Of a DNA stretch of 64,000 nt, positions 2,298-49,195 are shown one piece after another; the first letter of the stretch is position 1; each line of letters begins with the position of its first letter. The position numbers were made by a program, and so were the translations under genes. The notes under the pieces are model-generated. The model saw nothing but the letters and a program-made list of their open reading frames with translations, had not been told where the DNA came from and did no database searches. Source of the DNA: a virus; IMG/VR virus record IMGVR_UViG_3300031994_000086, positions 1-64,000 of that record. The stretch is one strand, 5' to 3'.

Positions 2298-3434
2298 TTA
2301 TTCCTCTGCATCGCCGCCTAAAACATAATCAATAACCTTCCTGTTTGCTTCGTCAACCTTGCGTTGATTGAAGTCAACATACACACTCGTAATCTTAAAT
2401 CCGTTTGAGTGACCGAGAGCTGCTGCGATAGTCTCCATAGGGATATCCAGGGATGCAGCAATCGTTGCCCAAGTATGACGTGCATAATATGTTGTGATAT
2501 CTTTGCCAAATATCTTCAATATCTTGTTGGCTCTGCGCATCACATACATATAGTTGGAGTTTTCTCCATAAGAGAGGAGTTTTTTCTTTCCTCTATATCT
2601 GTTGATAATCTCCATCGCCTCAGGCTCTACCTTTACAGAATAGAGTCTACCCGTCTTACTTCTTCGGTATTCCAACCTGCCGTTTACTAACTGTTCAGGT
2701 GCCGCATTGAGAAGGTCAACGCTGTTTATGCCTATAAGATAGAACATAAGGACAAACAAATCCCTGTATTTGGATTGTGCGCTTGTCAGCTCCGTTTGCG
2801 AGATGATAAACCGTAGTTCTTCTATCGGAATGTTACGTTTTCTTGTCTCCTCAGAGGGGATGGAAAATTTGCGAAACGGGTAATTGTCCGTAAGGTCGTG
2901 TTTGATTGCCCAGTTCATTACAGAACGGATATTTCGCAGATGAATAGCCATAGAGTTGACCATCAGTTCATCATTACGCATAAAACGCACAAAATCTTCA
3001 AGCCACGTCACTGTTATATTCAATGAGGCGTGGCTATCAAAAGCATCAACCTTTCTCGATGTGGCTATATACATTTCTTTTGTACGTTTCGCCTTGCAAC
3101 TTTCTGAGTACATCATTATATATTCTGACAGAGATTTGTCAAACGCTCCTTTGCCGAATACCTTATCCATGATAAGCCTGCGAAGTTCGTCGTGTGGCAT
3201 CAGGGAGTTTTCAACGGCAATCTGCTCAATACGGTCAAGATATTCATTGAGTTTTATAGTCTTTGCCTTGTGATTACTCTCTGTGCGAGGGAACACACCG
3301 TCAGAGAAAACAGACTTGGTAAACAGACCAGTGTGTATGTAGAGCCTCTGAGGAGGTCGTGACACACAGACATATATAGGCATTGAGCCATCAGCACGTT
3401 TGCGTTGTTGATTTATAAACTGATATATTCTCAT
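2298..3434 (-). CDS. int: tyrosine site-specific integrase (phage integrase family)
   Basis: 378 aa; C-terminus 'ARHTWATIAASLDIPMETIAAALGHSNGFKITSVYVDF' matches the R...H-x-x-R...Y catalytic box II of tyrosine recombinases; lies beside a tRNA-like att core. Confidence 0.8.
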   Translation of the reverse strand: MRIYQFINQQRKRADGSMPIYVCVSRPPQRLYIHTGLFTKSVFSDGVFPRTESNHKAKTIKLNEYLDRIEQIAVENSLMPHDELRRLIMDKVFGKGAFDKSLSEYIMMYSESCKAKRTKEMYIATSRKVDAFDSHASLNITVTWLEDFVRFMRNDELMVNSMAIHLRNIRSVMNWAIKHDLTDNYPFRKFSIPSEETRKRNIPIEELRFIISQTELTSAQSKYRDLFVLMFYLIGINSVDLLNAAPEQLVNGRLEYRRSKTGRLYSVKVEPEAMEIINRYRGKKKLLSYGENSNYMYVMRRANKILKIFGKDITTYYARHTWATIAASLDIPMETIAAALGHSNGFKITSVYVDFNQRKVDEANRKVIDYVLGGDAEE

Positions 3435-3482
3435 GTTTACACAATGTTTACAATTTGAGTACCTTTAAGTACCTTTAAGTGC
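3433..3482. repeat. arm-type-like direct repeats beside integrase start ('atgtttaca' x2 and tandem 'gtacctttaa' x2)
   Basis: Direct repeats at 3433-3441, 3445-3453 and 3459-3478; a third 'atgtttaca' at 3671-3679 on the other side of the tRNA-like core. Confidence 0.4.
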
Positions 3483-3552
3483 CATTTCTTGCTCCAAAAC
3501 AAAAAACGCAAGACCTACAACAACCCATTGTAAAGCCTTACGTTTCGTGTTT

Positions 3553-3600
3553 CTGTCGGGATGACCAGACTCGAACTGGCGACCACACGCCCCCCAGATA
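3553..3600 (-). other. tRNA 3'-half-like segment (T-arm GCCAG-TTCGAGT-CTGGT plus acceptor-like CATCCCGA); candidate attP/att core
   Basis: Minus-strand 'GGTCGCCAGTTCGAGTCTGGTCATCCCGACA' has a canonical T-stem/loop but no matching 5' acceptor strand upstream, so it is a fragment rather than a gene; flanked by arm-type repeats and next to int. Confidence 0.3.
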
Positions 3601-3814
3601 TTATTCAAACGAATTGTAAGGCTTTAAGGTTTAGATAGATACGTTCTTTTGCTTTGGCGAAGTTTACGAAATGTTTACAAATCGTGTGATTTTAACACTT
3701 TTTCAATATTCTCGACACAGCTTTCAAGCTCTTCTATTCGCCTTACTGCTTGTGCGAGAATTTCTGTTGTTTTTCTTCCTGCCTCTAATAGGAAAGATAA
3801 ATCTAAATCCGATG

Positions 3815-4180
3815 TCATTTCTTATTTATATTTTTAAGGGTTTCAAGTAAAGATGATATTTGTTCGTCTTTCTTTTCTATTTGTGCATTAAGTGCGACGA
3901 TATGTGTTTTCAGCATATCAATGTACTCTTGTGTTATTTTATCCGTCTTAATGTTCGGTTCTGCCATTGGCGAGGAAAACATTTCTCCTTCGCCACTAAA
4001 TAACCATGCCCTGCTGAGTTCGGGGTAAAGAGAAAGCACACATTCAAGTACTTTGTCGCTTGGTCTCTGTATATTTCTCAGATAGCCGTTTGAAACATTT
4101 ATTTTCTTTTCAAAACGTGCTGCTGGTATTCCGAGATGATTAATAAACATCAATAATCTGTCTTTCGTTGAATTATCCAT
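3815..4180 (-). CDS. HTH DNA-binding regulator (Bacteroidales-type)
   Basis: 121 aa; N-terminal 'DRLLMFINHLGIPAARFEKKINVSNGYLRNI' helix-turn-helix and the 'LSLYPELSRAWLFSGEGEM' motif typical of a Bacteroidales HTH family. Confidence 0.5.
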   Translation of the reverse strand: MDNSTKDRLLMFINHLGIPAARFEKKINVSNGYLRNIQRPSDKVLECVLSLYPELSRAWLFSGEGEMFSSPMAEPNIKTDKITQEYIDMLKTHIVALNAQIEKKDEQISSLLETLKNINKK

Positions 4181-4202
4181 AATATCGGAGGGTGTTAGGT
4201 GT

Positions 4203-4805
4203 TTATACTAATCTACCGTAGAAAGTGACACGGTATAGCTGTTTTATATCCTCTTTGCGAATAGAGAATGGTTTGTAATTATATGATGTACATATCAAAC
4301 TGTCGGCATCGTTATCATCTACTTGCAGATGCTTAATCATTCTATCGTAGGTGGTAATGATGAGGTATATTTTGTCAGGGTCTATGTATTGATTGCGCTC
4401 TACTTCATCCACCACGATGATATCGCCAGCCTTTATCACTGGCTCCATAGAGCATCCAACTACAGGGAAAGCATATTTGCCGTGCACACCGTCAATCTCT
4501 ATTCTGCCTACTGGCTTTTCATTAGCTATTACGGTTGCGAGGTCATACTGCCCTGCGCTTACCTGAACATCTTTATAATAAGGTATTCCTCTATCAGATA
4601 GATGTGCTACGGGTTGCGTAGTGGGGTAGAAATAAGACATCGGGAGTCCGAGGGCGGTGCTTAGTTCTTCTACAAGCCCCGTCTTAATGTCTTGGGCATC
4701 TAATTTCTGACTAAATGATTGCTGGCTGAGATTTAACAGCTTTGCAATTTCTGTTAGTGACTTTCCAGTTTTCTGGAGTTGCATTTTAAGTACTTCGCCT
4801 GTCAT
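4203..4805 (-). CDS. CI/LexA-like phage repressor (N-terminal XRE HTH plus C-terminal S24 peptidase)
   Basis: 200 aa; 'SLTEIAKLLNLSQQSFSQKL' HTH; 'VVGCSMEP' Ser nucleophile motif and a downstream Lys ('MIKHLQ'); divergent from early genes. Confidence 0.75.
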   Translation of the reverse strand: MTGEVLKMQLQKTGKSLTEIAKLLNLSQQSFSQKLDAQDIKTGLVEELSTALGLPMSYFYPTTQPVAHLSDRGIPYYKDVQVSAGQYDLATVIANEKPVGRIEIDGVHGKYAFPVVGCSMEPVIKAGDIIVVDEVERNQYIDPDKIYLIITTYDRMIKHLQVDDNDADSLICTSYNYKPFSIRKEDIKQLYRVTFYGRLV

Positions 4806-4873
4806 ACAATAAAAGTATTGTTAATATATATTAAAACTACAACATTACTATTGTAGGTTACAATAAAAATACT

Positions 4874-4890
4874 TATCTTTGCAAAAGATT
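4874..4890 (+). promoter_or_regulatory. Bacteroidota-type -7 promoter element (TAtcTTTG) in the repressor/early divergent region
   Basis: 'tatctttgcaaaag' matches the TAnnTTTG consensus; a hairpin 'ccgccaaacgcaaggcgg' (4944-4961) follows and may be an operator. Confidence 0.3.
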
Positions 4891-5053
4891 AAGTGACTTA
4901 TCTCTTGCATATCTTTCATCATCATTTTGCAAAGTTAGTTATTTTTTCTCATACCGCCAAACGCAAGGCGGTTTTGCAGACTTATTTATTGATACGACAT
5001 ACGATTGAGGGTAGGCTCTCAATTCTGAAAGGCTTTAACTTAGGGTAACACCT

Positions 5054-5407
5054 TTGTTTGAGCCTTTTTATTGTTTAACCGCAAAACATAAAATCATTAT
5101 GAAAGTACAAGACAACAAAATTCGCATCTCAGGCTTAGATGCCAAGATGATTGCCTCCTCTTTGAGGGGTTATGCCGATGATATTTACAACGGTAAGGAA
5201 TGTGAGAATTGCAAGGATGTGGAAATAGAGGTATGTAACGGACGTGTATATGTTGACTGCTCTATAACATATCTGACAAGCCGAGATATAGACGAGATAG
5301 ATATTGAGCGTGTTGATGCAATGATTTACGACCCTGTATATGACGCTCTATCAGGTAATGAGATAGCAGCAGAGGATTATGACACAATAAAGAAAGAGCT
5401 GTTATGA
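5054..5407 (+). CDS. hypothetical early protein (Cro-position gene)
   Basis: 117-aa ORF, first gene divergent from the repressor. Confidence 0.35.
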   Translation: MFEPFYCLTAKHKIIMKVQDNKIRISGLDAKMIASSLRGYADDIYNGKECENCKDVEIEVCNGRVYVDCSITYLTSRDIDEIDIERVDAMIYDPVYDALSGNEIAAEDYDTIKKELL

Positions 5408-5550
5408 AAAAGAAGAGAAAGATATCATTCCTCAACGAGGATAGCGGAAAACATATTGTTATGGAGTGCGTAGGAAATATATTCCAGGCATTAATGTTAG
5501 CAGTTGCAAGCGGTACGCATATAAGTCATGTTACAATAAAACAATACTAA
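5404..5550 (+). CDS. hypothetical small protein (48 aa)
   Basis: ATGA start/stop overlap with the previous ORF; K-rich N-terminus. Confidence 0.2.
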   Translation: MKKKRKISFLNEDSGKHIVMECVGNIFQALMLAVASGTHISHVTIKQY

Positions 5551-5562
5551 ATTCATATAACT

Positions 5563-5790
5563 ATGGACATTAAAACCAAATTCAGCATTGGTGATGTTAT
5601 CTACACAGTAGATACAGACACCTTAAAGATTGTCAGCGCACCGATAGATATAATATCTATTACGGTGATAAAAAGTGACGAAAAGCCTACCATAATGTAC
5701 GGCTTAAAAACAGGAAAGTTCAAGTCTGTAACAGAAGATAAATGCTTCTCGTCTGCAGAAGAGCTGATGCGACATCTGACGCAGAAATAA
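5563..5790 (+). CDS. hypothetical protein
   Basis: 75-aa ORF. Confidence 0.35.
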   Translation: MDIKTKFSIGDVIYTVDTDTLKIVSAPIDIISITVIKSDEKPTIMYGLKTGKFKSVTEDKCFSSAEELMRHLTQK

Positions 5791-5793
5791 CCC

Positions 5794-5847
5794 GGTGTGC
5801 GCCACCGCTGAAATATGGCGGTACGGTCGAACCGAGGCGCACACACC
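5794..5847 (+). other. Y-shaped structured element (10-bp outer stem GGTGTGCGCC/GGCGCACACC enclosing two hairpins); terminator or ncRNA
   Basis: Perfect complementarity seen directly; inner hairpins ACCGC-tgaaatatg-GCGGT and CGGT-cga-ACCG; no U-tract. Confidence 0.3.
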
Positions 5848-6138
5848 AAGAAAGAATACAGAGAGAAAGAGACGTTCTTTGACTTATTTACATTAATAGC
5901 GATAACAGAATTAGATAACGTGGGTATAACCCACATAGTGACTAATACAACGTAAGCGAGAGAAAGGGATGCGGCAACAGCTGCAAAATCGGTAAGACAG
6001 CTTGCTTACGGCAATACCCCACTGGTGCAACAGGCAGCATAAGCCGTCAAGTGTCCTCATAGACAGACTGACGGAGGACGTGAGTTCGAGTCTCACGTGG
6101 GGAGCACTCTGTTGTTTAACTTTTAATGAATCAAGATT

Positions 6139-8834: not shown

Positions 8835-9745
8835 CTATGGGAAAGAAATTCACGTTTTATCGCAGATGGTGGGATTATCTCTCTGAGTTTGACGATGATA
8901 TAAAGCTTGCATCATACGATGCTGTCTTTGCCTATATCTTTGAACACACAGAACCCGATAACGGTATTGTGAAAGCAATAACAAAACCAATCTTCTCTGA
9001 GATTGATAAGGAAGAAGAAAAGACGGAGGCACTAAGACAGAAGCGTAGCGAAGCAGGGAAAAAGCATAAGGGAAATCAACATACAAAGACTAAAAACGAT
9101 AAAAAATGGAACAAGTGTTCCAAAAATGGAACAAGTGTTCCAAAAATGGAACAAAATGGAACAAGTGTTCCAAATTTAGAGAAAAAAGAAACAACAAATA
9201 CGAAAGATAGTATAGAAAATTGGAACAAGTGTTCCAAAAATGGAACAAGTGTTCCAAAAACAAACGAAAGTGAAGAAAAAAATAAAACAAAAAAAGAAGA
9301 AATCCCCCCACACCCCCCTATAGAAGAAAAAAATAAAACAAAAAAAGAAGAAACAAACTATAATGCGTGCGAGAAAAAAAAATCGGACAGAGAAAAAAAT
9401 GAGAAATCTCTTAGAGAAAGGCAAGCCGCTTTTGCATCAGCCGTCCAGGCGCACGCAGAGAACTATGACGAAGCAATGCTCAGGGATTTTATAGACTACT
9501 GGACTGAGCCAAATAAGTCTTACTCTAAGATGCGCTTTGAACAGGAACGGACGTGGGAACTGAAACGCAGGCTTGACTATTGGGAAAGAAGAAGTAAACA
9601 ATTCAAACGTATAAGCTATGGCACCACAAACAGTAACGGATATATTGCACCAGAGTTACGTGCAACCCAAGAGCGAAGAGAACAAGAAGAACGTCTTGCA
9701 GTGCGTATCAGGCAACTTGCAGAGGAAGATGGAGGCGGTATGTAG
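8831..9745 (+). CDS. replisome-organizer-like replication initiator with internal iteron array
   Basis: 304 aa; N-terminus 'FTFYRRWWDYLSEFDDDIKLASYDAVFAYIF' resembles a phage replisome organizer N-domain; central K/N-rich low-complexity region is encoded by the iterons. Confidence 0.5.
   Translation: MTMGKKFTFYRRWWDYLSEFDDDIKLASYDAVFAYIFEHTEPDNGIVKAITKPIFSEIDKEEEKTEALRQKRSEAGKKHKGNQHTKTKNDKKWNKCSKNGTSVPKMEQNGTSVPNLEKKETTNTKDSIENWNKCSKNGTSVPKTNESEEKNKTKKEEIPPHPPIEEKNKTKKEETNYNACEKKKSDREKNEKSLRERQAAFASAVQAHAENYDEAMLRDFIDYWTEPNKSYSKMRFEQERTWELKRRLDYWERRSKQFKRISYGTTNSNGYIAPELRATQERREQEERLAVRIRQLAEEDGGGM
9101..9345 (+). repeat. candidate origin: 5 copies of inverted-repeat iteron 'aaaatGGAACAagTGTTCCaaa' plus duplicated A-rich block
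   Basis: Copies start at 9108, 9128, 9158, 9222 and 9242, with a half copy at 9147; 20-30 bp phasing; 'gaagaaaaaaataaaacaaaaaaagaagaaa' occurs twice at about 9283-9350. Confidence 0.5.
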
Positions 9746-19736: not shown

Positions 19737-20810
19737 ATGGAAATGCAGACGTTTAATGTAGGCGACAAGGAGTGCGTGGCACTTGTGAGGAAACTGACAC
19801 CTCGTGAATGTTTCCGTCTTATGGGCGTATCTGACACCGATATAGATAAGATACAAGATGCAGATGTCAGCGTGTCGGCACAATACAAACTCGCTGGTAA
19901 CAGTATCGTGGTTGACGTGCTTTACCACATCTTCCGTAAGGCTTTCGTCAATCGTGGCAATGACACAAGGCAGATGACTATCTTTGATGCTTGTGCAGAA
20001 CAAAACGAGATGGAGTACACACACGGCAATCCGCTACGAGTTGTAACGCTTTGCTCTGGGTATGACAGTCAGTGCCTGGCACTTGAAAGATTAAAAGCGG
20101 ACTACCCACCGTTTGATTATGAGCTGATAGCGTGGAGTGAGATAGAACCTGCCGCCTGTAAGGCACACGATGCACTGTTTCCTCAGTGGGCAGACAGAAA
20201 CCTTGGCGATATGACGAAGATTGACTGGAACAACGTACCCGATTTTAACCTTCTGTTTTACAGTATTCCTTGCACGGATATTTCTCAAAGCGGAAAACAA
20301 GCAGGCTTTACTGAGGGTAGCGGCACTCGCAGCTCTATCATCTGGAATGTGCGTGATGCGCTGATGATTAAGAAACCTAAATACGCTTGTCTGGAGAACG
20401 TGGCGGCAATGGTAAGTCAGAAATTCCTTCCGATGTTCAACCTTTGGCAGAACGAGGTAATGCGGTTAGGTTATACCAACTTCGCAAAGCTGCTCAACGC
20501 AAAGGACTACGGAGTACCGCAGAACAGAGAACGTATATTCCTGTGGTCTGTGCTCAACGAGGGCAAGGACGTGAACTATTACTTTCCGCAGCCGATACCG
20601 TTGACTAAGACGCTGAAAGACATCCTTGAAGATGAGGTTGACACACGTTTCTATCTCAATCCTGGGAGGGTGCAGGAGTTTGTTCGTGACAACATAGACA
20701 AGGTTACACAATATGCTAACGATGGTATTGGCGAGATAGAGCCGATGCCCAATAGGCTGAGGGAATGGGTAGAGAATTATGAGAAGAAATGTATCACCAC
20801 AGACAAGTGA
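19737..20810 (+). CDS. DNA (cytosine-5)-methyltransferase with circularly permuted motif order (IX-X-I-IV-VI-VIII-TRD)
   Basis: N-terminus 'TPRECFRLMGVSD' (motif IX) and 'AGNSIVVDV' (motif X); then 'VTLCSGYDSQ' (I), 'PCTDIS' (IV), 'ENV' (VI), 'QNRERIF' (VIII). Confidence 0.65.
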   Translation: MEMQTFNVGDKECVALVRKLTPRECFRLMGVSDTDIDKIQDADVSVSAQYKLAGNSIVVDVLYHIFRKAFVNRGNDTRQMTIFDACAEQNEMEYTHGNPLRVVTLCSGYDSQCLALERLKADYPPFDYELIAWSEIEPAACKAHDALFPQWADRNLGDMTKIDWNNVPDFNLLFYSIPCTDISQSGKQAGFTEGSGTRSSIIWNVRDALMIKKPKYACLENVAAMVSQKFLPMFNLWQNEVMRLGYTNFAKLLNAKDYGVPQNRERIFLWSVLNEGKDVNYYFPQPIPLTKTLKDILEDEVDTRFYLNPGRVQEFVRDNIDKVTQYANDGIGEIEPMPNRLREWVENYEKKCITTDK

Positions 20811-20879
20811 CGGTTGTATTCCTGCGCTGACTACAAGGTATGAGGCGATGGGAGTGACAAATATCATAGACACAGGTCA

Positions 20880-21700
20880 TTACCCAAGGGGGGGGGGTAA
20901 TAGAGTATTATGAAATCAGTAATTAACCAAACGGCAGATAAAAACTGCAGAACCTTGTGCTCACACTACCACAAGGCAGGTGTGACGGATTTCCTGCCTA
21001 TCAGGGGGGGCAGTAGAGAACTAGAAACCGTAATAGTAGAGATTTATGAGAACAAACGTAGTAGCAAACCTGATGTTCCATCCGTATGACACGATGTTTG
21101 AACAGTCAAGGCGTGTGTACGGTGTCAACGCACTCGCTCCTGCAATGCACACAGTAGGGGGGGGTAACTTAGAACCAAAGATAATAGTGGTATATGAGAC
21201 AGACAATATTCGGGTGGTCGAGGGATAGCAGGGGAGTAGTCACGGACAGACACCCCGTCACGGTGTGCAACTGCATCACCGTAGGTATGCGAGACAACAC
21301 CACACCTTATGTAGTAACGGTATATGAGAACTAAGAACAAGACACTTGTATTAGGGGGTGGGTACGCAGGACTATCAGAGGGGTATGGTAATGTGCTTAT
21401 TATAGGACTGATGAGAACCCTGAGCGTGAACACCGCCTATCCGTTTGTTGCACTGATTTATGAGAACAATAATTGTAAGAAATATGATACAGACAAAACA
21501 ATGCCGCAGTTGTGGAAGGGTGCTGCCACTGACAGAGTACGGTATCAACAGAGCCAAGAATGACGGCTACCAGATATACTGCAAGGAGTGCACCAACATC
21601 AAAAGACGAGAATACAGAGATAGCGTAAGACGCAGGGAAAGGCTAAGGATGTATGAGAGAAAGATTGCAAGATAATAGAAATGTATAATAATTAAAAATC
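20880..21700 (+). repeat. degenerate tandem array (about 130-150 bp units) carrying poly-G tracts (G10, G7, G8, G5TG3) and overlapping small ORFs joined by 'tTATGAGAAC'
   Basis: G10 at 20888-20897, G7 at 21004-21010, G8 at 21157-21164; 'tatgaga[ac]' at 21045, 21193, 21321 and 21458; stem TTACCC/GGGTAA flanks the G10 tract. Confidence 0.5.
21460..21675 (+). CDS. basic zinc-ribbon small protein (CxxC...CxxC)
   Basis: 'CRSCGRV...CKEC' followed by an R/K-rich tail. Confidence 0.35.
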   Translation: MRTIIVRNMIQTKQCRSCGRVLPLTEYGINRAKNDGYQIYCKECTNIKRREYRDSVRRRERLRMYERKIAR

Positions 21701-36945: not shown

Positions 36946-37467
36946 TTATCGTGTTTTACTTTCGCCAAAGAAACCTTTGCGCTCTTTTATTGAAATGTTC
37001 TCCCCGTGTATTTCTATCTTCGCATCGCCGTAGTTGTGCAAGAATACTTTTGATGTTTCGTCACACCAAATGCGCACTGTCGTGAAATCCAATGTGTTTA
37101 CCCATACTTTTGCATTATTGGAAGCGACAAGCTCAAGCACGGATTGATGCCGTACGTATATCTCGCCAACTATTCCTTGCATTAGTACCCTGGCGTTGGT
37201 ATCGCCTAACAGTACCGACATCTGTCTGTTAACTATCAAAGCGTTCTCATCAGCATATATACCGAAGGAATTGATTGTTTCACCAAATTTCTCTTTGATA
37301 AAATCCACAGAAGGGTAGTTGTGTTTGAGACAGAAATCAATTCCTCGGAGGTACTTTTCAATTAGTACCTCCTTAGAACTGTTATCTTCCCACTCCTGTT
37401 GCCACTGGTCGCATAGACCAAGACTGACAGCTTTTTCTTTGCAAATATCTGATAGTGTGCTCTCCAT
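36946..37467 (-). CDS. tail protein, hypothetical
   Basis: 173 aa. Confidence 0.35.
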   Translation of the reverse strand: MESTLSDICKEKAVSLGLCDQWQQEWEDNSSKEVLIEKYLRGIDFCLKHNYPSVDFIKEKFGETINSFGIYADENALIVNRQMSVLLGDTNARVLMQGIVGEIYVRHQSVLELVASNNAKVWVNTLDFTTVRIWCDETSKVFLHNYGDAKIEIHGENISIKERKGFFGESKTR

Positions 37468-40400
37468 TATGCTACGTTGTTAATTTTAACATTGAGGTAT
37501 CTTCTTCCAAAGACTACATCGTCCATCCTTTCATCCATTCTGTCTATACTGCTTGATATAGCGTCAAGTGTTGACCTTATTCCTCGCAACTCAGCAAGAC
37601 TAAGGTTCATAGATGCACCCATTGTAGGCATTACTTCCTCTACAAGCCTCTGCAGATAGCCTCTATTCAGGCTGACATCGGCACGAATAGCATTGATGTA
37701 ACTTGCGAGAAGGTCTGCTGTGTCCTCTGTAACTCCCTTGATGCCAGAGGAAAGAGAACTTGATGCTGAGTCTTTCATGTCATAACCGTAAATCTTTGCA
37801 ATGTCATTCCAGTTATCCATAAAAGAGTTTGCCATTGACACTCTGTCTTGCAGTCCAAGGAAGATATTGTTAAGGTCGGCAAACAATCTACCATCCATAA
37901 CGCCGTTCTTGCGTTGGAACTCGTCAAGCCAAGTGTCTATATTGTCATCAAGCCACGTTCCGAGTATCTTCTGTTGCATTACACTCTGAGATACGTTTCT
38001 CAATGCCTCAGACACAGCATCCTTGTATGCCTTTACAGAGTTTGTTCCAGCTGCCCAAGCATCAACAAGTGACGAAGCAAGACTCTCAGAATAACCAGTA
38101 AAATCAATAGAGTACAGTTCTGCCGCCATCGTCTTAGCAAAATTGGTTATCTGCTGTTGTAACTTCTGTAACTCCTGTGAATATTCTGCAATCTTGGTGC
38201 TGTCTTGGTCTTTCTTCTCTTGCTCAAGTTGCAACATCATCCCTGCTTGGTCTTTCTGAGCCATCAGCAAAGCATACTGGGTGTCATAGTATGACTTGGA
38301 ATGCTTTGCTGTTCCAATCTGTTTTAATGTCTGAGCTGACAGGTGGTCTCGTAACGTGGTAGTCTCCACTCCGTTAAACAAATCGTGTAGGAATGAGCCT
38401 TCTACCTCATACTGCACCTTCATCAGCTCTTGTAACTGACTAAAGGCTTCGTCGGCTTTCTTGTCGCCCCAAGAATATACACCACCGGCAAGTGATTGTA
38501 TTGCTTCGGAAAGCATAGAAGAAAGGTTTGACAAGAGTTTATTACCCTCTTGCAGTTCTTGTATCATTGCCTCTCTGTCTGCATCAGGGTCTCCGATGAT
38601 GTCCGAAGCCACAGAGATTGCCGCTGCTGCCGCCGCTCCATAAGGTCCAGCAGCAGACAAGGCACTACCTAATCCACTATCCTTACCTGCCGCCTTGCTC
38701 AGAGTATCAAATGAGCCTGCCACAGAACTTGCAGATGACAAAGCATTGTTGCTCGCTCCAAGAATACCTGCCAATCCCTTTGCTCCTAACTTGTCAAACA
38801 AGTCTGCAACTGGTTGTAAGATAGAGTTGAGTGCCTGGAACGAATTAATCAGTGCGTCAGTATTCTTTTTCAGCTTATCTTGCGCACTTGTCTCACCGCT
38901 CTGGAAGTATTCACGACCATATCGCTGTCCCTCCTTCAAGCCTAATCTCCTGTCTCTTGCACTGTTTGTCGCAGTATAGGTCTTAGATGTACCCATTTCG
39001 TTAAGCACGCTACGGTAGTCACGCACTTGCGAGTAACTTGTGCCAAACTGTGTGAATACATCTTTGCGCTCCGTAATCTTGTCAAAGACATCTTTGACCT
39101 GCTCTGTTGCCTGTAAGAACTTGTCAAAAGTGATTATGCCATTCTCGTATTCATCGGTAATCTGCTGCAGTATTCTGTCACGCTCCTTTATAAGGGTGTC
39201 ATCATCCATATTCCATGCTGCACGATTGAATGTTCGATAGCCCTCAGAAGCCTCCATAATCTTTCGGTTTGCGTTTATCGTGGCAATTCTTGATGCTCTG
39301 TCTCGCACCTCCTTCGTGGCTTCTTCATCCACTTTGTCACCATCTTTAACCTTCAGATTGTTTATTATTCGCAAGGTATCGACTAATTCGTTCTTGATAC
39401 GCTCCAGTGCGGCTTCCTCACCTTCAAAACTATCTAACTGACCTACAACGGCATTGACGGCTTCTTTTTGAATATCCATTCTCGCCTGTCGCAGGTCTTT
39501 GATGATTTTGATAATGTCACCATCTTTGCCGAAAAGGTCTGTCAGTTCATCATCTTTCAGGTCTATCACATCGTCAAGCGTGAGCGTAGAGTTATCACGC
39601 TCGTTGACCTCGGCAATGCGCCTCTTTAATCTTTCAGTGAGGTCTCTTTCGTAGTCTTTACCGAGATTGATGTTTGATTTTCCATCAGTATCGGTATAGG
39701 TTACTGCATTATCAGCCAATATAGAAGCAACATTCTTACCGTACTTCTTGCGTATAGAGTCACGCAAATCGTACTGCGCCTTTAACTGCTGCGTAAATTC
39801 TTGGTAAGACTTTGTAAGTGCATCAACGACACGCTTTTCCTTGTCATACTGTGCCGTTTCCACATTCGTTTCCTTTGACTGCCAAGTGGCTTTTCTTGCC
39901 TCCTGCCACTCTTTCAGTCCCTTGCCGATGAGTTTCTTTGCATCGTCAGCTATGTACTGGCGCACTCCGACCTCGTCGCTCCAATCCTCAATACCTGTAA
40001 TGCCCTCCTGCTCTGCCTTTCTTGTGACACGCCTTGTTGCTTCTATCTCTCCGTAGAGGTCACGATATTTCTTATACAGTGCGATAAGTTTCTCAATAGC
40101 CTCCCAGCGTTTCTTCAAAGCGTCTAACTCTCTGTCACGAGGTGTACCACCACGACCATTCTTCTTTTTGTCATCATCAGTAAAGCCGTAGATGTCATAA
40201 TAGAGATATTTTTGCTTCTCATAATCTGCTTTCGCTTTATTAAGCTTTTCCTTAGTCCATTTTTCTTGACCTTTCTTTATTGACTGACTTATCAGGTCAA
40301 AATCCTTCTTCGCACTATCCAAGTCGGCTTTTGCCTTCTTTTGAAGGGCTGTAAAGTTGCCTTCTTGTGTCTGTTCCTCTAATGTTGACAAATAGTCTTT

Positions 40401-43400
40401 ATAATTTGGCTTACCAGTGCCAAGTTTTGACATCAAGCGGTCTGTCATCGTCTTTGTCAAGTCGTTTGTCTGTGTACCAGTGGTAAGTTTTGCTATAACC
40501 TGCACATAGAAAGGACTATTGTCAAGCAAACGCTGGAAATCTGCCGCCTTGTTAGGATATTCGGCTTTCATCGCTTCTATGGCAGCGGTGATAGCTTCTC
40601 TGCCCTGTCCTTCTGCGATGTCCTTGATATTCATACCATCCTTTATCTGCTGCTTGAAACCTTTGATGGCATCACCTCCCATCTTTTCCACCTTGGCAGC
40701 GATGATATTTCCGTAGGTGTCCCAGTTGTTCATTCTAAGGGCATCATGAGCCATCAATCTTAAAGCGTCTGCCATTTCAGGCGATTTCTTTTCAATGGTC
40801 TGTATCCAAGAGTTCAGATTTACCTCGAATATCTGTTGCTGTTCTTCCAGGGATTTGCCTGGATTTGCGTTCTTCGTCAGTTCCCAAAGCTCTGTCAGAT
40901 GTTCTTTCAACTGCTCATACAAGGTGTTGTAATCTCTTGAAAAGACATCTTTTGCAACAGCATCATTAGGTGTTTTCAGCAACTCATTGTATCTCTTTTG
41001 CAAATCCTCGATGTTTTCTTCGATAGAGTCTTCCCAGAAATTAAATGCCGACTTCTTCATCTCGTCAGCCCACGCATTTGACAACTGTTCTGCCGCTGGC
41101 TCAGCCTTATTTATCTTTTCTAACTCCTCACGAACCTTTTGCAGTTTGTCAATAACACTGTCATTGATGTCGAAATTTGCAAAGACAGAACCCGTCTGAG
41201 ACTCATACTCTTTCATCAGCTCGTTTAGATCATTGGTAGCTTCGTGCTCGTCTAAGTTGAGTCTCAAAGGGTGAGCGTCAAGAAATTCGGTCAGTCTTTC
41301 ATATCTGCTCCGTATTCCTTCTTCCATCGCCTTGGTTTGCTGCTCTACCTCTGTCTGTCTCTGCTGGTATTTGGCGTATGCAACAAATCCTGCCGTCAAA
41401 GCTACGCCTGCCCAGCCTCCCATCATACCGAGTGCGCCTGATGCAAGTGAGCCTATTCCTCTCATGGCAAGTGCGCCTGTACCTTTCATCGCAGTTCCCA
41501 TGTTACCAAACATACCTGCGATGTTGCCCTTCATCATATTTGCATTGATTTGGGCATAGGCAGACTTTGTCCTTTGCAGTATCACCAGACGTTCTGCCTC
41601 TTGTCTCGTGATTGCACCTGCGTTTTTCAGTGCTATCGCATCTCTGATAGTTATCTGGTTCTTTGTCGCAAGTATTCTCCTTTCTGCATCGTTCAGGGCA
41701 TTAGCACCTTGCAGGAGCGCCTTCTGTGATGCTTGCTGAACAAGGATTTGCTTAGAGGATATTGCGTTATTCAGTGAGCGACCTCCTAACAGACCGTTAA
41801 AGATAAGTCCACCTACCTTCTTTGCCGCAAAGGTGGCAAAAAATGCCATGACAACACCTGCAGCCTTGTTAAAGCCAAGTATTATCTCTGTAATGAAGTT
41901 CAGGATGCTCTTCATCGTGCCACCGACAACACTATCGCCTTTCGCAAACTCTGACAGCATTATCTCCCATGCGTCAACGAGTTTGTTGTAACGACCATAC
42001 AATGTCTGTGACAAGGTTTCCTGCATATTGAAGAACTGACCTCCCTTATCGGTCATATCCCACAATACCTGCTGTACATCTTCAAAAGACACCTGACGCT
42101 TGAATACCATCTGTCTTACCTCACCAGTGGTATATGCGTGGTCGCCCTGCTTGGTGTACATATCAGCGAGTTTCTGCAACAGTGGCACACCTGCATAAGC
42201 AAATTGACGCAATTCCTTACCGTCAAGCCAAGAACGTGCCTTAACCTGACCGTATGCCAATCCTAATCGCTCGAAAGATACGCCAAGTCCTGATGATATA
42301 TCGGCAAGTCGTTTCGTGGTGTCGTACAAATCGTCTGCTTCTACACCGAAGGCGGCTAACTGCTTGACATCTCGGTTCAGTTCTCCGAAGGTGAATGGAG
42401 AACTAAGGGCAAGTCCCTTAATCTGTCCGAACAGTTCATCTGCGTCTTGTAAGTCTCCGATGATAGAGCGCAGTGCGATGTGCTGTTTCTCTATCTCACC
42501 ACCAATCTGTATGACGCTCATTACAAGTTGTTGCATACCATATACGGGAGCAAACTGATACAGCATATTCGTCAGTTGTCCCATAGTGGTGTTTGCACCG
42601 TGTGCGGCACTCTGCAACTGCTTGTACTTGTCTGCTAACTGCTGTATCTGCTGTGCGTTACGTCTCGCTGCTTCCTCTGCTCGCTTTTGCGCATCTTCTT
42701 GCTCTCTCGCTGCTTTTGTTGCAGCTTTTGATGCAGCGTTGGCTTGCGTCTGCGCAACGCTGAGACTATTCAGTGCATCTTGCTTGCCTGCTGTGAGGTC
42801 TCGTTTTGAGTATAGTGCGCCGCCATTCTGTAATGCCTGCACCATCTGTTGATATGTGGCAATAACGCTCTGTATCTCCTGTTTGGCGGCTTCTAACTTT
42901 GATGTGTCAATATTAGGCGAATATTTCTTTTCGTCAGCTTCCCTTAATGTTGTTGACAATGACTTTATCTGTCTTTCAAGGAAGTCTATCTGACTGTCTC
43001 GCTTCGCCTGTATCTTGTTCTTCGCATTGAATTGGTCTAACTGACGCTGTGCAGCCTCCATCGCCTTTGCGTACTGATTGAGTGCCTGCACCTTGTCAGC
43101 ACCAGCGAGTTGGAAGTCTCTCTTTGTGGCAGACTTGTTGTCAAGGAGGTTGTAAAGGTCTATAATCTTCCTCAGTTCCGCTGCTTGCTGTGTCAGTCGT
43201 GAAGTGTCAAGTCCGGCGTCACGCATCTTGCCGCTTGTGGTATAGAGGTCTTTGAGTTTGTTTTGTAACCCTTCTACCTCTTTCGCTACCCTCAGATGAT
43301 TTGCCGCCTGTGCGTCAAGTGCCTTTTCGCTTTCTTTGGCGGCTTGTGCCTGCGCCCTTGCAGACTCTACGGCTGCTTTTTCTTGCGCTGTATAGAACTC

Positions 43401-44597
43401 TTTGAAGGCATTGCGCTCACCACTTGTCATCGTACGTTGTCCCTGTGACTGCATAGTGACACGCATTCGTGCTTCCTCTGCTCGCTTAAAGGACTGCTCA
43501 ATCGCTTTTGCGGTGTTTTCTGCCTCTCTTGCAACAGACTTGAAGTCATTGAGAAGGTTGCCGCCATTCATTCCCAAGAATGGATTGCTTCTTGTTATGT
43601 CAACAGAGTTCAGCATTTCACGCATACGCTGTATCTGTTGCATCTGCGCTGTTATCTGATTGTCCTGAGCCGAGCCTGTTTTTGTATTCGTCCTTGCAAT
43701 GTTCAGTCGCTCCTCCAGTTCAACAAGCCGTCTGAGTGCATCCTGTTGCTTTTCATAGTTAGCGGCGGTACGGACAAAAGACTGCTCATCTGCGTTACGC
43801 CCTGCAACCGCTATGCCAGCACGTTGCATCTCATTACGCATCTGTCTATGCTGGTCGTAGAAGTTGCGGAATGTACTCTCTAAAAATACACCGTCTTGCT
43901 TTGCATTCGTGATAAGGGTGCGCCAACCTGCCTCTAACGACTGAAAATCCTGTATGCGCTGACGCATAGCAGTAACTCGTGTGTCGTTCTCTCCGTATTT
44001 GGATATAGAAGCGTTGAGCTGTGCTGCGGCACGAGCAGACATCGTTTGTATCTGTTGTATCGCTCCGTTTGCCATATTGGAGTATTTCATATACTCCTTT
44101 GTCTCAGACTGAAACGCCTTAACAACGGCTTGCGACTCCTTCCCTAATGATAAGAACTTCTCAAAACCGATGTTATCTACGATATGATTGACAAGCTTTC
44201 CTGGACTCCCTGCCTTACTCTGCAATGACTCCAACGTAGCATATAACTTTCGTATCTGCTCTGTTGTCTGCGCTATCTTGTCTGAGCCAAAACCGAGGTC
44301 TATCTGCTGACGTTTTAAGTCGTTCAGGCGCATCATACTATCAACCATCTGGTCGATACTTCTTGTCGCCTGCTTGGCTTCTGACGGACTGATAATACCA
44401 CTTATCGTCTTGCCGTTTGCAGTTGTCATCTCCTTAGCCAAGCCTCCAATGCCTGTCTTTAACTTGGAAAACAGACTTTGCGTCCTGGATATCTCTGCAT
44501 TTATTTCTGAGATGGATTTTTCCACCTTGCCAAGCGGAGCAGATACACCATCTTTTAACCCAAGTTCTATTTCTAATGCTCCTATATTCTCTGCCAT
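37467..44597 (-). CDS. tape measure protein (2376 aa)
   Basis: Very long coiled-coil-rich ORF with Ala/Gly-rich hydrophobic central segments; follows the chaperone pair. Confidence 0.7.
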   Translation of the reverse strand: MAENIGALEIELGLKDGVSAPLGKVEKSISEINAEISRTQSLFSKLKTGIGGLAKEMTTANGKTISGIISPSEAKQATRSIDQMVDSMMRLNDLKRQQIDLGFGSDKIAQTTEQIRKLYATLESLQSKAGSPGKLVNHIVDNIGFEKFLSLGKESQAVVKAFQSETKEYMKYSNMANGAIQQIQTMSARAAAQLNASISKYGENDTRVTAMRQRIQDFQSLEAGWRTLITNAKQDGVFLESTFRNFYDQHRQMRNEMQRAGIAVAGRNADEQSFVRTAANYEKQQDALRRLVELEERLNIARTNTKTGSAQDNQITAQMQQIQRMREMLNSVDITRSNPFLGMNGGNLLNDFKSVAREAENTAKAIEQSFKRAEEARMRVTMQSQGQRTMTSGERNAFKEFYTAQEKAAVESARAQAQAAKESEKALDAQAANHLRVAKEVEGLQNKLKDLYTTSGKMRDAGLDTSRLTQQAAELRKIIDLYNLLDNKSATKRDFQLAGADKVQALNQYAKAMEAAQRQLDQFNAKNKIQAKRDSQIDFLERQIKSLSTTLREADEKKYSPNIDTSKLEAAKQEIQSVIATYQQMVQALQNGGALYSKRDLTAGKQDALNSLSVAQTQANAASKAATKAAREQEDAQKRAEEAARRNAQQIQQLADKYKQLQSAAHGANTTMGQLTNMLYQFAPVYGMQQLVMSVIQIGGEIEKQHIALRSIIGDLQDADELFGQIKGLALSSPFTFGELNRDVKQLAAFGVEADDLYDTTKRLADISSGLGVSFERLGLAYGQVKARSWLDGKELRQFAYAGVPLLQKLADMYTKQGDHAYTTGEVRQMVFKRQVSFEDVQQVLWDMTDKGGQFFNMQETLSQTLYGRYNKLVDAWEIMLSEFAKGDSVVGGTMKSILNFITEIILGFNKAAGVVMAFFATFAAKKVGGLIFNGLLGGRSLNNAISSKQILVQQASQKALLQGANALNDAERRILATKNQITIRDAIALKNAGAITRQEAERLVILQRTKSAYAQINANMMKGNIAGMFGNMGTAMKGTGALAMRGIGSLASGALGMMGGWAGVALTAGFVAYAKYQQRQTEVEQQTKAMEEGIRSRYERLTEFLDAHPLRLNLDEHEATNDLNELMKEYESQTGSVFANFDINDSVIDKLQKVREELEKINKAEPAAEQLSNAWADEMKKSAFNFWEDSIEENIEDLQKRYNELLKTPNDAVAKDVFSRDYNTLYEQLKEHLTELWELTKNANPGKSLEEQQQIFEVNLNSWIQTIEKKSPEMADALRLMAHDALRMNNWDTYGNIIAAKVEKMGGDAIKGFKQQIKDGMNIKDIAEGQGREAITAAIEAMKAEYPNKAADFQRLLDNSPFYVQVIAKLTTGTQTNDLTKTMTDRLMSKLGTGKPNYKDYLSTLEEQTQEGNFTALQKKAKADLDSAKKDFDLISQSIKKGQEKWTKEKLNKAKADYEKQKYLYYDIYGFTDDDKKKNGRGGTPRDRELDALKKRWEAIEKLIALYKKYRDLYGEIEATRRVTRKAEQEGITGIEDWSDEVGVRQYIADDAKKLIGKGLKEWQEARKATWQSKETNVETAQYDKEKRVVDALTKSYQEFTQQLKAQYDLRDSIRKKYGKNVASILADNAVTYTDTDGKSNINLGKDYERDLTERLKRRIAEVNERDNSTLTLDDVIDLKDDELTDLFGKDGDIIKIIKDLRQARMDIQKEAVNAVVGQLDSFEGEEAALERIKNELVDTLRIINNLKVKDGDKVDEEATKEVRDRASRIATINANRKIMEASEGYRTFNRAAWNMDDDTLIKERDRILQQITDEYENGIITFDKFLQATEQVKDVFDKITERKDVFTQFGTSYSQVRDYRSVLNEMGTSKTYTATNSARDRRLGLKEGQRYGREYFQSGETSAQDKLKKNTDALINSFQALNSILQPVADLFDKLGAKGLAGILGASNNALSSASSVAGSFDTLSKAAGKDSGLGSALSAAGPYGAAAAAAISVASDIIGDPDADREAMIQELQEGNKLLSNLSSMLSEAIQSLAGGVYSWGDKKADEAFSQLQELMKVQYEVEGSFLHDLFNGVETTTLRDHLSAQTLKQIGTAKHSKSYYDTQYALLMAQKDQAGMMLQLEQEKKDQDSTKIAEYSQELQKLQQQITNFAKTMAAELYSIDFTGYSESLASSLVDAWAAGTNSVKAYKDAVSEALRNVSQSVMQQKILGTWLDDNIDTWLDEFQRKNGVMDGRLFADLNNIFLGLQDRVSMANSFMDNWNDIAKIYGYDMKDSASSSLSSGIKGVTEDTADLLASYINAIRADVSLNRGYLQRLVEEVMPTMGASMNLSLAELRGIRSTLDAISSSIDRMDERMDDVVFGRRYLNVKINNVA

Positions 44598-44615: not shown

Positions 44616-44867
44616 TTATTTTTTGAAAAATTCTCCGAGTGATGTTCTCTTTCCTCCCTTAAACTCCTGCAACGGGTCGGAAACGCCCTTTGCTCCTCCT
44701 TTTTTCTTTTCCCAGCGTTCTGCAAGGTCATCCATCTGCTTCTTGGTGTTCTTTTTCTCTTTCTTGAAACTTACAAATGGCTGGTCTGCTATCATTAGCT
44801 CTATCTGCGCTTTTGTATAACCCCACCAATAATCGTAAGCCTTAACGCCAAACCTCCTTTCAAACAA
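44616..44867 (-). CDS. tail assembly chaperone, -1 frame extension (GT-like C-terminal part)
   Basis: Its frame stays open upstream back to the A9 tract at 45014-45022 and overlaps the 149-aa chaperone ORF. Confidence 0.45.
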   Translation of the reverse strand: MFERRFGVKAYDYWWGYTKAQIELMIADQPFVSFKKEKKNTKKQMDDLAERWEKKKGGAKGVSDPLQEFKGGKRTSLGEFFKK

Positions 44868-44884
44868 GAAAGGATGCTTCTCTG

Positions 44885-45334
44885 CTAAGGAGTATGCGGC
44901 TCCCCACGTCGTGCGGCTTGGAAACGTTTTACTTCCTCCTTCGTCATCGTCATCATCAAGTCCGTCATCTCTGTCAAGTACATGGTAGCCAAGTAAAATG
45001 CTTCGTGCTGTACTTTTTTTTTAGCCACATCAAGTACCCGCAGGGCATCTACATTGTCAAGGTCTTTGACATAGTACAACCAACGCCACATAAACCAATA
45101 AAGGAAGAATATCTTAAACTTTCCGTTAAGCAGTATCGCTGCTACCGTCTTACAGTGCGCCTTTTGGGGGTCTTCTTCGGTTTGCATAATATGCGTCACT
45201 TTCCGTTGTGTGCCGTTATGAACCCAGCCGATGGTGTAAGTATGACCGTTAACATTCACTTTCTCTGGCGTAGCAGAATAAAGCTCATCTAACTTTTTCT
45301 GCAGCACTATGTCGGGAGTCTCTTTTTCTTTCAT
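44885..45334 (-). CDS. tail assembly chaperone (G-like), with a slippery A9 tract
   Basis: 149 aa; lies upstream of the TMP; the '...AKKKVQ...' segment is encoded by 'gct aaa aaa aaa gta'. Confidence 0.5.
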   Translation of the reverse strand: MKEKETPDIVLQKKLDELYSATPEKVNVNGHTYTIGWVHNGTQRKVTHIMQTEEDPQKAHCKTVAAILLNGKFKIFFLYWFMWRWLYYVKDLDNVDALRVLDVAKKKVQHEAFYLATMYLTEMTDLMMTMTKEEVKRFQAARRGEPHTP

Positions 45335-45419: not shown

Positions 45420-46025
45420 TTAGTTAGCGTCAACACGCTTCAACCATGCGAAGTTAGCGTCGCCTGAGGTCTCGATAGAACCAGAGAACTGAATAGCAAA
45501 CGGCTCTGTTGATGCGTTCTCATACAGAGGCTTCGCATACAGTGCGATGTTGCTGATAATCATAAAGTTCTCCTTGTTCTCGTCAAGAAGTCCTATTGTA
45601 CCAGTCACCTTCTGCATATTTACCACAACAGAAGCGCCTTCCCACTTCTTGCCTGTGCCAGCAGGAGAGTCACCACCAGTCATAGTCGCACCAGTGATGG
45701 TCTTGTAAGCAGTCTCGCCGAAAGCGAGCTTGATAACATCCTCCGCCTTTGTAGGTACGGTGAACTGTACAGTGAAGTCACCTGCCTCGGCTGATGATGT
45801 CCAGTCACCCTGCAAGCCGATAACCTTGTAGTGGTTGATTGTAGGGTCGTCCTGGGAAATCTGAAGTGTGTCAACGGTGACAGGGAGGTCGTAGTCCCAG
45901 TCAATACTGATAGCATTACCGCCTGCATCTGTTGCTCCGTCAAGGTCAACAGCAGTCTTGCAGAAGTACAGTGAGGAAAGTCCGTTAAATACGTCTTTCA
46001 ACTCGGTCTTTGTCTTAAAAGCCAT
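45420..46025 (-). CDS. major tail protein candidate
   Basis: 201 aa, T/G/S-rich, between the connector genes and the chaperones. Confidence 0.5.
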   Translation of the reverse strand: MAFKTKTELKDVFNGLSSLYFCKTAVDLDGATDAGGNAISIDWDYDLPVTVDTLQISQDDPTINHYKVIGLQGDWTSSAEAGDFTVQFTVPTKAEDVIKLAFGETAYKTITGATMTGGDSPAGTGKKWEGASVVVNMQKVTGTIGLLDENKENFMIISNIALYAKPLYENASTEPFAIQFSGSIETSGDANFAWLKRVDAN

Positions 46026-48022: not shown

Positions 48023-49195
48023 TTAAGCGGTTACAGTACTTACGAACATTCCGTTTGTGGCTGATGGTACACAGAGCTGTGCTGCCTCAGACTCTATATA
48101 GATAGAGTGTGTCTCAGGGATAGCACGCTGTGTAAGTACCAGACGACCACCGTCATACAATGCCACCTTGTCTGCATCGTAGCCGAGAGTGATAGGTGCG
48201 ACACCCATGATATCGCCGAGCTTGCCGTCTGGCACGAAAGCGATATTCTTGCTGTCGAAAGACTCTATCTGTGTAGTCACGATATCCTTTACAGTAGCAT
48301 CTGCGCTGTCAACATAAGCGTAAGTGTCCTTCGGAACTATTCTCACGCCACACAAGCGGTTAAGCCACTCTGCTATAGTGCCTTCGGCTACATTCTGTGC
48401 ATTGGCAACGGCTGTAGTGTCGTCGGCTGCAGCCGGGAACATAGCATAACCGATACGTTTCAGCACTGCTGAGTGTGTCAGAAGGTCGTCGTACATATCC
48501 TGACTTATCTCAACGTGCAGACCACCATAGTAGTGCTTGTCTCTGCGGATGAACTTTATTCTATCCTTGATATACTTGATTGGGTCAGCTGCAGAACCTT
48601 CGGTGGTGCGTGCTGCATTAGTCCACCAACGTGCAGTACCAGTCAGTGTGTCACGGTGTGTAGAGTCGATGAAGTCAATCTCGATGCCCTGCAAGCCACG
48701 TGGATTGTTCTTCTCATCTATGACAAACTTACCTGTTGACACGATACGCATACGCTGATGTGTCAGTGCGTTCATGAAAGAGCCAATCAGACCGTCAGTA
48801 CCCTCATCGATAAGCCCCATAAATACATTACGCATTTCTGGAGTGAGGGCGGCGGCTCCTACCTGTTGCAACAACTGCAGACGCTCTGAGACAATGACAC
48901 GGTTCAGACGATAAAATTTCTTCATCGTAGGAATGTTACCTGTCTTGCCCTTTACCTCTTTGAGTGCAGCCTCGTAGCCTGGAGACTCTGGGTCAACGTA
49001 TGCAGGAAGGGTGTTTGCGCCTGTCTCTGCAATCAACTGTTGGAAGGTGTAGCTCAGCTGCAGTGGAGCGAACTCAAAGCCGTCAACCTGAGCTATATCG
49101 TATTTCTCGGCATAGCGGTCAACAAACTGCTGCCAAGTGTCATTACCCAATCCATAGGCGATGACGTTATACAAATCTAATGGAAGTGTATTCAT
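48023..49195 (-). CDS. major capsid protein candidate
   Basis: 390 aa; lies between the scaffold and the connector genes. Confidence 0.5.
   Translation of the reverse strand: MNTLPLDLYNVIAYGLGNDTWQQFVDRYAEKYDIAQVDGFEFAPLQLSYTFQQLIAETGANTLPAYVDPESPGYEAALKEVKGKTGNIPTMKKFYRLNRVIVSERLQLLQQVGAAALTPEMRNVFMGLIDEGTDGLIGSFMNALTHQRMRIVSTGKFVIDEKNNPRGLQGIEIDFIDSTHRDTLTGTARWWTNAARTTEGSAADPIKYIKDRIKFIRRDKHYYGGLHVEISQDMYDDLLTHSAVLKRIGYAMFPAAADDTTAVANAQNVAEGTIAEWLNRLCGVRIVPKDTYAYVDSADATVKDIVTTQIESFDSKNIAFVPDGKLGDIMGVAPITLGYDADKVALYDGGRLVLTQRAIPETHSIYIESEAAQLCVPSATNGMFVSTVTA

Follow-up and report, generated by a model that had tools for sequence, protein, structure and literature searches.

A conserved A9-10 tract in a predicted tail assembly chaperone pair of Bacteroidales siphophages may direct G/GT production by RNA polymerase slippage

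Gene pair and genomic context

We analyzed a 64,000-nt stretch of viral DNA (IMG/VR record IMGVR_UViG_3300031994_000086, positions 1 to 64,000; hereafter the window) in which two overlapping reading frames lie on the minus strand directly ahead of a tape measure gene. The first, G, is a predicted zero-frame tail assembly chaperone ORF of 149 aa plus stop at 44885..45334 (-). Its codons 105-107 read AAA AAA AAA (Lys105-107) and form an A9 tract at 45014..45022 (-), seen as T9 on the plus strand, which contains the heptamer A_AAA_AAA and is the predicted shift site. No other T run of 9 or more exists on the plus strand of the whole window. A TAA stop in the -1 frame at 45021..45023 (-) overlaps the first two A's of the tract and sets the 5′ limit for entry into the second frame, T. 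This -1-frame extension occupies 44616..45020 (-), has 134 codons plus stop and lacks a start codon of its own; 134 open codons separate the tract-side TAA from the T-frame stop codon at 44618-44616. The 83-aa ORF with a TTG start that a mechanical ORF list places at 44616..44867 sits in this same -1 frame of G.

The predicted fusion GT has 239 aa and consists of G residues 1-107 and the last 132 T codons, join(45334..45014, 45014..44616). A single slip by -1, or the insertion of a single A into the mRNA, would give a junction that reads ...VAKKK up to the shift and STARSILLGY after it. The two frames overlap in a dual-coding stretch of 42 codons at 44888..45013 (-), where frame 0 encodes the G C-terminus VQHEAFYLATMYLTEMTDLMMTMTKEEV and frame -1 an acidic T N-terminus YHVLDRDDGLDDDDDEGG. 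The distance from the slip to the G stop is 127 nt; in typical chaperone pairs it is 26-36 nt (PMC10274946).

We defined a shift-permissive zone of 133 nt, extending from the -1-frame TAA to the G stop, within which A_AAA_AAA is the only heptamer of the form X_XXY_YYZ. Over 64 kb, chance alone would place about 0.9 A runs of 9 or more on each strand; for the 133-nt zone the figure is about 0.002. The openness of the overlapping frames was not significant given the protein encoded in the other frame (synonymous resampling, P = 0.11-0.66), and we therefore dropped frame openness as an argument for recoding. The real support for the site is comparative, namely an A9 or A10 tract in 195/195 loci (see below).

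An earlier note on this sequence had described the 149-aa minus-strand ORF with its AAA AAA AAA and T9 at 45014-45022, a -1-frame TAA overlapping the start of the A run, and a -1 frame open for about 130 codons into the 44616-44867 ORF. The coordinates of the ORF and the tract hold, the TAA lies at 45023-45021, and the open codons number 134. Two details required correction. The note had proposed a heptamer of the A AAA AAG type, but the 133-nt zone contains no in-frame A_AAA_AAG and the heptamer is A_AAA_AAA; and its fusion peptide, in which AKKK was joined to KSTARS, has one Lys too many, since a single shift joins AKKK to STARS with three Lys.

Within the overlap, the block GATGATGACGATGACGAAGGAGGAAG at 44930-44965 (-) is nearly invariant across the family. 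It encodes MMTMTKEE in frame 0 and DDDDDEGG in frame -1, and we attribute its near-invariance to this dual coding. The block also includes the sequence AGGAGG, and no start codon follows this internal AGGAGG in the T frame of the window.

The genes around the pair form a tail module, with the minus-strand order capsid, four small ORFs, a 201-aa tail tube ORF, G, T and tape measure. The major capsid protein gene at 48023..49195 (-) was recognized by phrog_29 (E = 7e-20) and PF03864 (E = 1.4e-6). Directly upstream of the pair, the major tail tube protein gene (201 aa) at 45420..46025 (-) had no Pfam or PHROG match and was assigned by fold: its AlphaFold model (pLDDT 72) gave YSD1 6xgr_A as the best Foldseek PDB match (E = 4e-4), followed by Bxb1, Chi, T1 and lambda, and the top matches are all siphophage tail tube proteins. 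The tape measure protein gene at 37467..44597 (-) begins 19 nt past the T stop and matches PF20155 TMP_3 (E = 2.8e-18). Its product of 2376 aa is very long and implies a tail of several hundred nm; in relatives, the tape measure ranges from 1904 aa (locus L055) upward. The order of tube, pair and tape measure recurs in L055 and in the phages PV4-TP1 and LoVEphage.

Elsewhere in the window, a tRNA scan returned zero tRNAs. An A-rich region at 9274-9400 (+) contains two copies of an approximately 30-nt direct repeat, gaagaaaaaaataaaacaaaaaaagaagaaa, and several A7 runs, and may be regulatory or origin-like; apart from the chaperone tract, the A9 at 9374 (+) is the sole run of this kind in the window that reaches 9 or more. 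A series of short ORFs at 20779-21563 (+) lies 3′ of a C5 cytosine methyltransferase-like ORF (19737-20810). These ORFs each carry a poly-G tract (G10 at 20888, G7 at 21004 and G8 at 21157) and encode recurring peptides (..GGGN.., ..IYEN..MRT..). They may be repeated units, and the region resembles an array of gene fragments in tandem or a further switch that depends on homopolymers.

Identity of the pair

Neither Pfam nor PHROG matched G, T or any of the six neighboring small ORFs, the capsid and tape measure being the exceptions in the region; megablast of the region retrieved nothing from GenBank phages, and a profile search of G against PDB sequences returned only noise. A structure model of G (pLDDT 61) gave weak chaperone matches in a fold search. 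We did not use this search as proof of chaperone identity.

The assignment of the pair as a lambda-type G/GT is supported by position and architecture, with weak fold support and no sequence-family match. The paper defining tail chaperone pairs is said not to require sequence homology to known chaperone families. At the sequence level, the locus has the position between tube and tape measure, the -1 overlap without its own start and the heptamer that characterize lambda-type pairs. As in lambda gpG/gpGT, the tube and tape measure genes are separated by a pair of overlapping ORFs, of which the second is in the -1 frame without a start, and a slippery site in the overlap would lead to a short and a C-terminally extended product with a common N-terminus. 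The earlier note had likewise compared the locus to lambda G/GT, and this likeness is borne out by the position between tube and tape measure, by the conservation of T from the tract onward and by natural in-frame fusions described below. We count the HK97 tail assembly chaperone structure 2OB9 among the closest known systems. By analogy, we infer that G and GT would bind the tape measure protein via their shared N-terminal part and that T would recruit the tail tube protein.

The pair also departs from lambda G/GT in several respects. It uses a homopolymer of 9-10 nt, whereas the lambda slippery sequence is G_GGA_AAG. The shift lies 42 codons before the G stop, such that a conserved 42-residue G C-terminus is exchanged for T. 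Some relatives of the window pair have the reverse polarity, and the mechanism is likely transcriptional, as discussed below.

Conservation of the A tract in relatives

We assembled 195 loci, including the window, from IMG/VR, GTDB genomes, JGI metagenomes, Logan, ENA and GenBank phages, and mapped HMMs for the N-terminal part of G, the G C-terminus and T onto three-frame translations of these loci. A protein search with the predicted fusion matched G-like proteins, -1-frame ORFs that had been called as genes (all starting around KK(K)[NT]S) and a few one-frame fusions. The G-like family comprises 369 clusters, with T-frame proteins besides. The 195 loci correspond to 131 distinct 400-nt sequences, among which G identity goes down to 29-50% and the codons flanking the tract vary.

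At the homologous codon between the N-terminal part of G and T, the tract is A9 in 61/195 loci and A10 in 134/195. This dimorphism follows the residue after a conserved KKK, with Val (GTN) giving A9 and Ile (ATH) giving A10. Tracts of 7, 8 or 11 A's never occur at this site in the 131 distinct sequences. Over 1.23 Mb of these loci, coding-strand A runs of 5, 6, 7, 8, 9 and 10 nt were counted 1627, 557, 88, 20, 75 and 135 times, respectively, with none of 11 or more. As this histogram is bimodal, with a second mode at one site, we conclude that runs of 9-10 A's are selected there. The loci fall into two arrangements, with the run kept in all: T lies in the -1 frame in 181 (canonical), while the N-terminal part of G and T share one frame in the other 14 (reversed). 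A_AAA_AAA is in frame in every canonical relative, and in 86 of the 116 distinct canonical phase-0 sequences the base before the run is T, which creates the TAA that closes the -1 frame at the tract.

The T frame has invariant residues (Y10, D14, D21, P32-S33-R34-T35 and G38), and its conservation starts at the tract, some 50 residues ahead of the TTG (44867), indicating that T is not an independently initiated protein. Dual coding extends for 42-45 codons after the tract in the family, with conservation of the G C-terminus as well as of the acidic T N-terminus. T-frame synonymous differences amount to 0.33 in the overlap versus 0.47 outside it.

Hosts of the family belong to the Bacteroidales and include Leyella stercorea, Prevotella MAGs and Segatella copri HDD04, whose complete genome carries a prophage of the family at NZ_CP152484.1 885809-898192. 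Phocaeicola phage PV4-TP1, from P. vulgatus BM8, and Bacteroides phage BI-TP1, from B. intestinalis BG4, are cultured relatives, and the highly prevalent LoVEphage is also a member. PV4-TP1 (PQ571302.1, L196) and LoVEphage (MW660583.1, L197) each have, at 2459-3201, an A10 tract and a 148-codon -1 ORF. In both GenBank records, the two ORFs are labeled 'hypothetical protein', the downstream ORF is shortened to an internal start and the frameshift is unannotated; the LoVEphage paper makes no mention of a frameshift.

Two relatives have tail modules of a different layout. In L055, two glycosyltransferase-like genes (DUF4422 and Stealth_CR2) at 3637-5924 lie between a 191-aa ORF at 2983-3558, which from its position is probably the tail tube gene, and the chaperone gene; these two genes look like a moron insertion in the tail module. 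In Dulem virus 40 (PP511379.1, L198; region 2917-4158), the gene directly after the T-frame ORF is an integrase gene on the opposite strand and not a tape measure gene, which is an unusual break in the tail module.

Loci of reversed polarity

In the 14 reversed loci, the conserved G C-terminus is found in the +1 frame. Their tract is A10 and is read cAA AAA AAA AAt, giving Gln-Lys-Lys-Asn with no zero-frame KKK. The +1 frame stays open for 40-45 codons past the run in 13/13 reversed loci examined for this; the remaining locus, L184, lies outside these 13, and the call of its reversed state comes from HMMs only. An hhalign comparison shows the +1 peptide to be a homolog of canonical G C-termini (probability 97.6%, E = 3.7e-12), and T-frame synonymous change in the reversed loci, at 0.316 in the overlap versus 0.474, is as depressed as in canonical loci.

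The reversed loci form two separate lineages. The first consists of L055 and L184, which come from two assemblies and differ in sequence; the relative closest to them, L185 (69% identity), has the canonical arrangement. What changed in the L055 lineage is that a further G precedes the run (gcc to ggcc), with the run length unaltered. The second lineage consists of 12 loci (L056 and L156-L166) that are 67-77% identical to the query protein P0021 and whose flanks vary. L156-L166 come from rumen contigs in IMG/VR, and their sisters L167-L183, which come partly from the same datasets, are canonical. We considered whether the fusions P0004 and P0021 were homopolymer assembly errors and rejected this, as it is refuted by L184 as a second assembly, by the 11 diverged rumen contigs and by the canonical sisters from the same datasets.

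From these sequences, it appears that GT is what the unshifted template encodes in the reversed phages, which would then need a shift into the +1 frame for the short G, for example through an mRNA with one A fewer or two more.

Mechanism of recoding

We consider it very likely, on comparative sequence evidence, that the pair is recoded and that both G and GT are made through a frame change inside the tract. The earlier note had offered either a ribosomal frameshift or transcriptional slippage on A9; the evidence leans to slippage without settling the choice, and we put the probability that RNA polymerase slippage is the selected mechanism at roughly 0.55. Ordinary reading from the shared start codon would yield G (149 aa). 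The host RNA polymerase would slip on the tract of 9-10 A's, leaving some mRNAs with one extra A, and normal translation of these would yield GT (239 aa). Slippage of the ribosome by -1 on A_AAA_AAA may add some GT, and polymerase slippage and a ribosomal mechanism probably both occur to some degree. An mRNA pool with one A more or fewer would serve the canonical and the reversed arrangements alike.

Runs of 9 A or T cause efficient slippage of bacterial RNA polymerase in vivo, and the hybrid of this enzyme is 9-10 bp (PMC5009743; PMC3711429). Two features of slippage of the dnaX type, an A/T run of about 9 or more at the frame change and a site that can serve either polarity, are present in the family. 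A third feature would be mRNAs of mixed run length made from uniform DNA; in the DNA, run length is constant within lineages. We favor polymerase slippage because the tract has the length of the RNA-DNA hybrid, 9-10 nt, and is never shorter than 9 although 7 suffices for the heptamer; because the reversed loci keep A10 without KKK and need a shift other than a -1 tandem slip can deliver; and because no conserved RNA structure flanks the tract. On the last point, RNAalifold found 0 conserved pairs on either side of the tract (24 diverse sequences for the downstream side, 22 for the upstream side), and the single sequence from the window showed no stimulatory structure (fold z = 0.09). A conserved GGAGG upstream of the tract was not found in the aligned relatives. 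These searches gave no sign of the stimulators, whether stem-loop, pseudoknot or SD-like element, that mark stimulated -1 ribosomal frameshifting of the dnaX or IS type.

A strong, though less favored, alternative is that the ribosome rather than the polymerase shifts frame, either by a tandem -1 slip of two tRNA-Lys on A_AAA_AAA or by sliding on poly-A, with the same G and GT as products. The window and all canonical relatives have A_AAA_AAA in frame, as does any A9, and both mechanisms yield an identical GT sequence. A low-efficiency shift needs no RNA structure; lambda G/GT works without a stimulator, so that a missing structure does not discriminate between the two. The need for both KKK[V/I] and the heptamer could explain the length of 9-10 in canonical loci, and only the reversed lineages argue otherwise; these are a minority of 14/195 loci and would need some route to sufficient short G. 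Shifts other than -1, as a ribosomal route in the reversed lineages would need, are possible in chaperone pairs: the tail chaperone of phage Mu reportedly uses a -2 frameshift, although its slip site is different and has no homopolymer of 9-10 nt. A -1 ribosomal frameshift in tail chaperone genes is conserved among tailed phages and is the established mechanism for such pairs in general (reviewed in PMC5009743, citing Levin 1993 and Xu 2004).

The ribosomal explanation fits the reversed lineages less readily. A -1 tandem slip cannot reach the G C-terminus in the +1 frame of the 14 reversed loci, and A10 is retained there despite the loss of the zero-frame KKK. Ribosomal sliding on A runs can proceed in either direction and could serve these lineages, but in an E. 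coli cell-free system it was weak at A9-A10 and robust at A11 (PMC4363877). Furthermore, a run of 7 would do for the ribosome, yet neither 7 nor 8 is ever used.

Two further explanations are very improbable. The tract could be a site that varies at the DNA level, by replication slippage or phase variation, or through assembly error, with genomes differing in whether they encode G or GT. Homopolymers are indeed prone to indels in replication and sequencing, and the reversed contigs resemble indels at first sight. Run length, however, is constant within lineages (27 independent contigs of one context are all A10 and 22 of another all A9), lengths of 8 or 11 are not seen, the reversed state is clade-specific and occurs in diverged sequences from many samples alongside canonical sisters from the same datasets, and the L055 lineage differs by the G before the run and not by run length. 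Equally, there could be no recoding at all, the 83-aa ORF from the TTG at 44867 being an independent gene, as the short separate ORF in the LoVEphage and PV4-TP1 records would have it, and the A9 being incidental; but conservation of the -1 protein begins well before that TTG and takes in the invariant PSRT, all 195 loci keep the tract, 14 of them have the two parts in a single frame as a fusion, and the T frame offers no start codon past the internal AGGAGG.

Discussion

RNA polymerase slippage at the tract, our preferred reading, has a precedent in Thermus thermophilus dnaX, where transcriptional slippage occurs on a 9-nt A/T run (Larsen 2000; PMC5009743, PMC3711429). Like the phage pair, the dnaX tau/gamma system combines a run of 9-10 A's with two proteins that share an N-terminus and requires no RNA structure. 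In other bacteria, genes related to dnaX are arranged the other way round and depend on the shift for their long product (PMC5009743, PMC3711429). The comparison is limited in that dnaX is a cellular replication gene for which slippage was shown experimentally, whereas slippage in the phage pair is inferred from comparative data.

Related paramyxoviruses differ in which P/V product the unedited template encodes. These differences parallel the canonical and reversed arrangements described here. P/V mRNA editing likewise relies on polymerase stuttering at a homopolymer to produce alternative C-termini (PMC5009743). The likeness is in logic only, as the paramyxoviruses are RNA viruses with their own polymerase, which inserts G and not A.

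In a literature search of incomplete coverage, neither transcriptional slippage in a tail chaperone gene nor a frameshift in LoVEphage turned up. Taken as a whole, we would give even odds to the hypothesis that a large, widespread, unannotated family of Bacteroidales siphophages uses slippage of the host RNA polymerase, and not ribosomal frameshifting, to make G and GT, with either product encoded in the template frame and the polarity flipped at least twice, as a phage-tail counterpart of P/V editing.

Textbooks present the frameshift of tail chaperone genes as the model of ribosomal recoding in phages, and annotation tools rely on heptamer models to find it. A chaperone frameshift is by itself ordinary; what sets this family apart is the family-wide A9-10 tract together with the two polarity flips. 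If polymerase slippage does operate family-wide, the host RNA polymerase and the tract length would set the G:GT ratio, and prediction tools and genome annotations would miss such genes. The reversed-polarity lineages would then represent a natural experiment on the range of G:GT ratios that is tolerated. Our analysis also proposes a function for two unannotated protein families carried by phages of Prevotella, Segatella, Bacteroides and Phocaeicola that are abundant in the human gut and the rumen, and the cultured relatives make the question directly testable.
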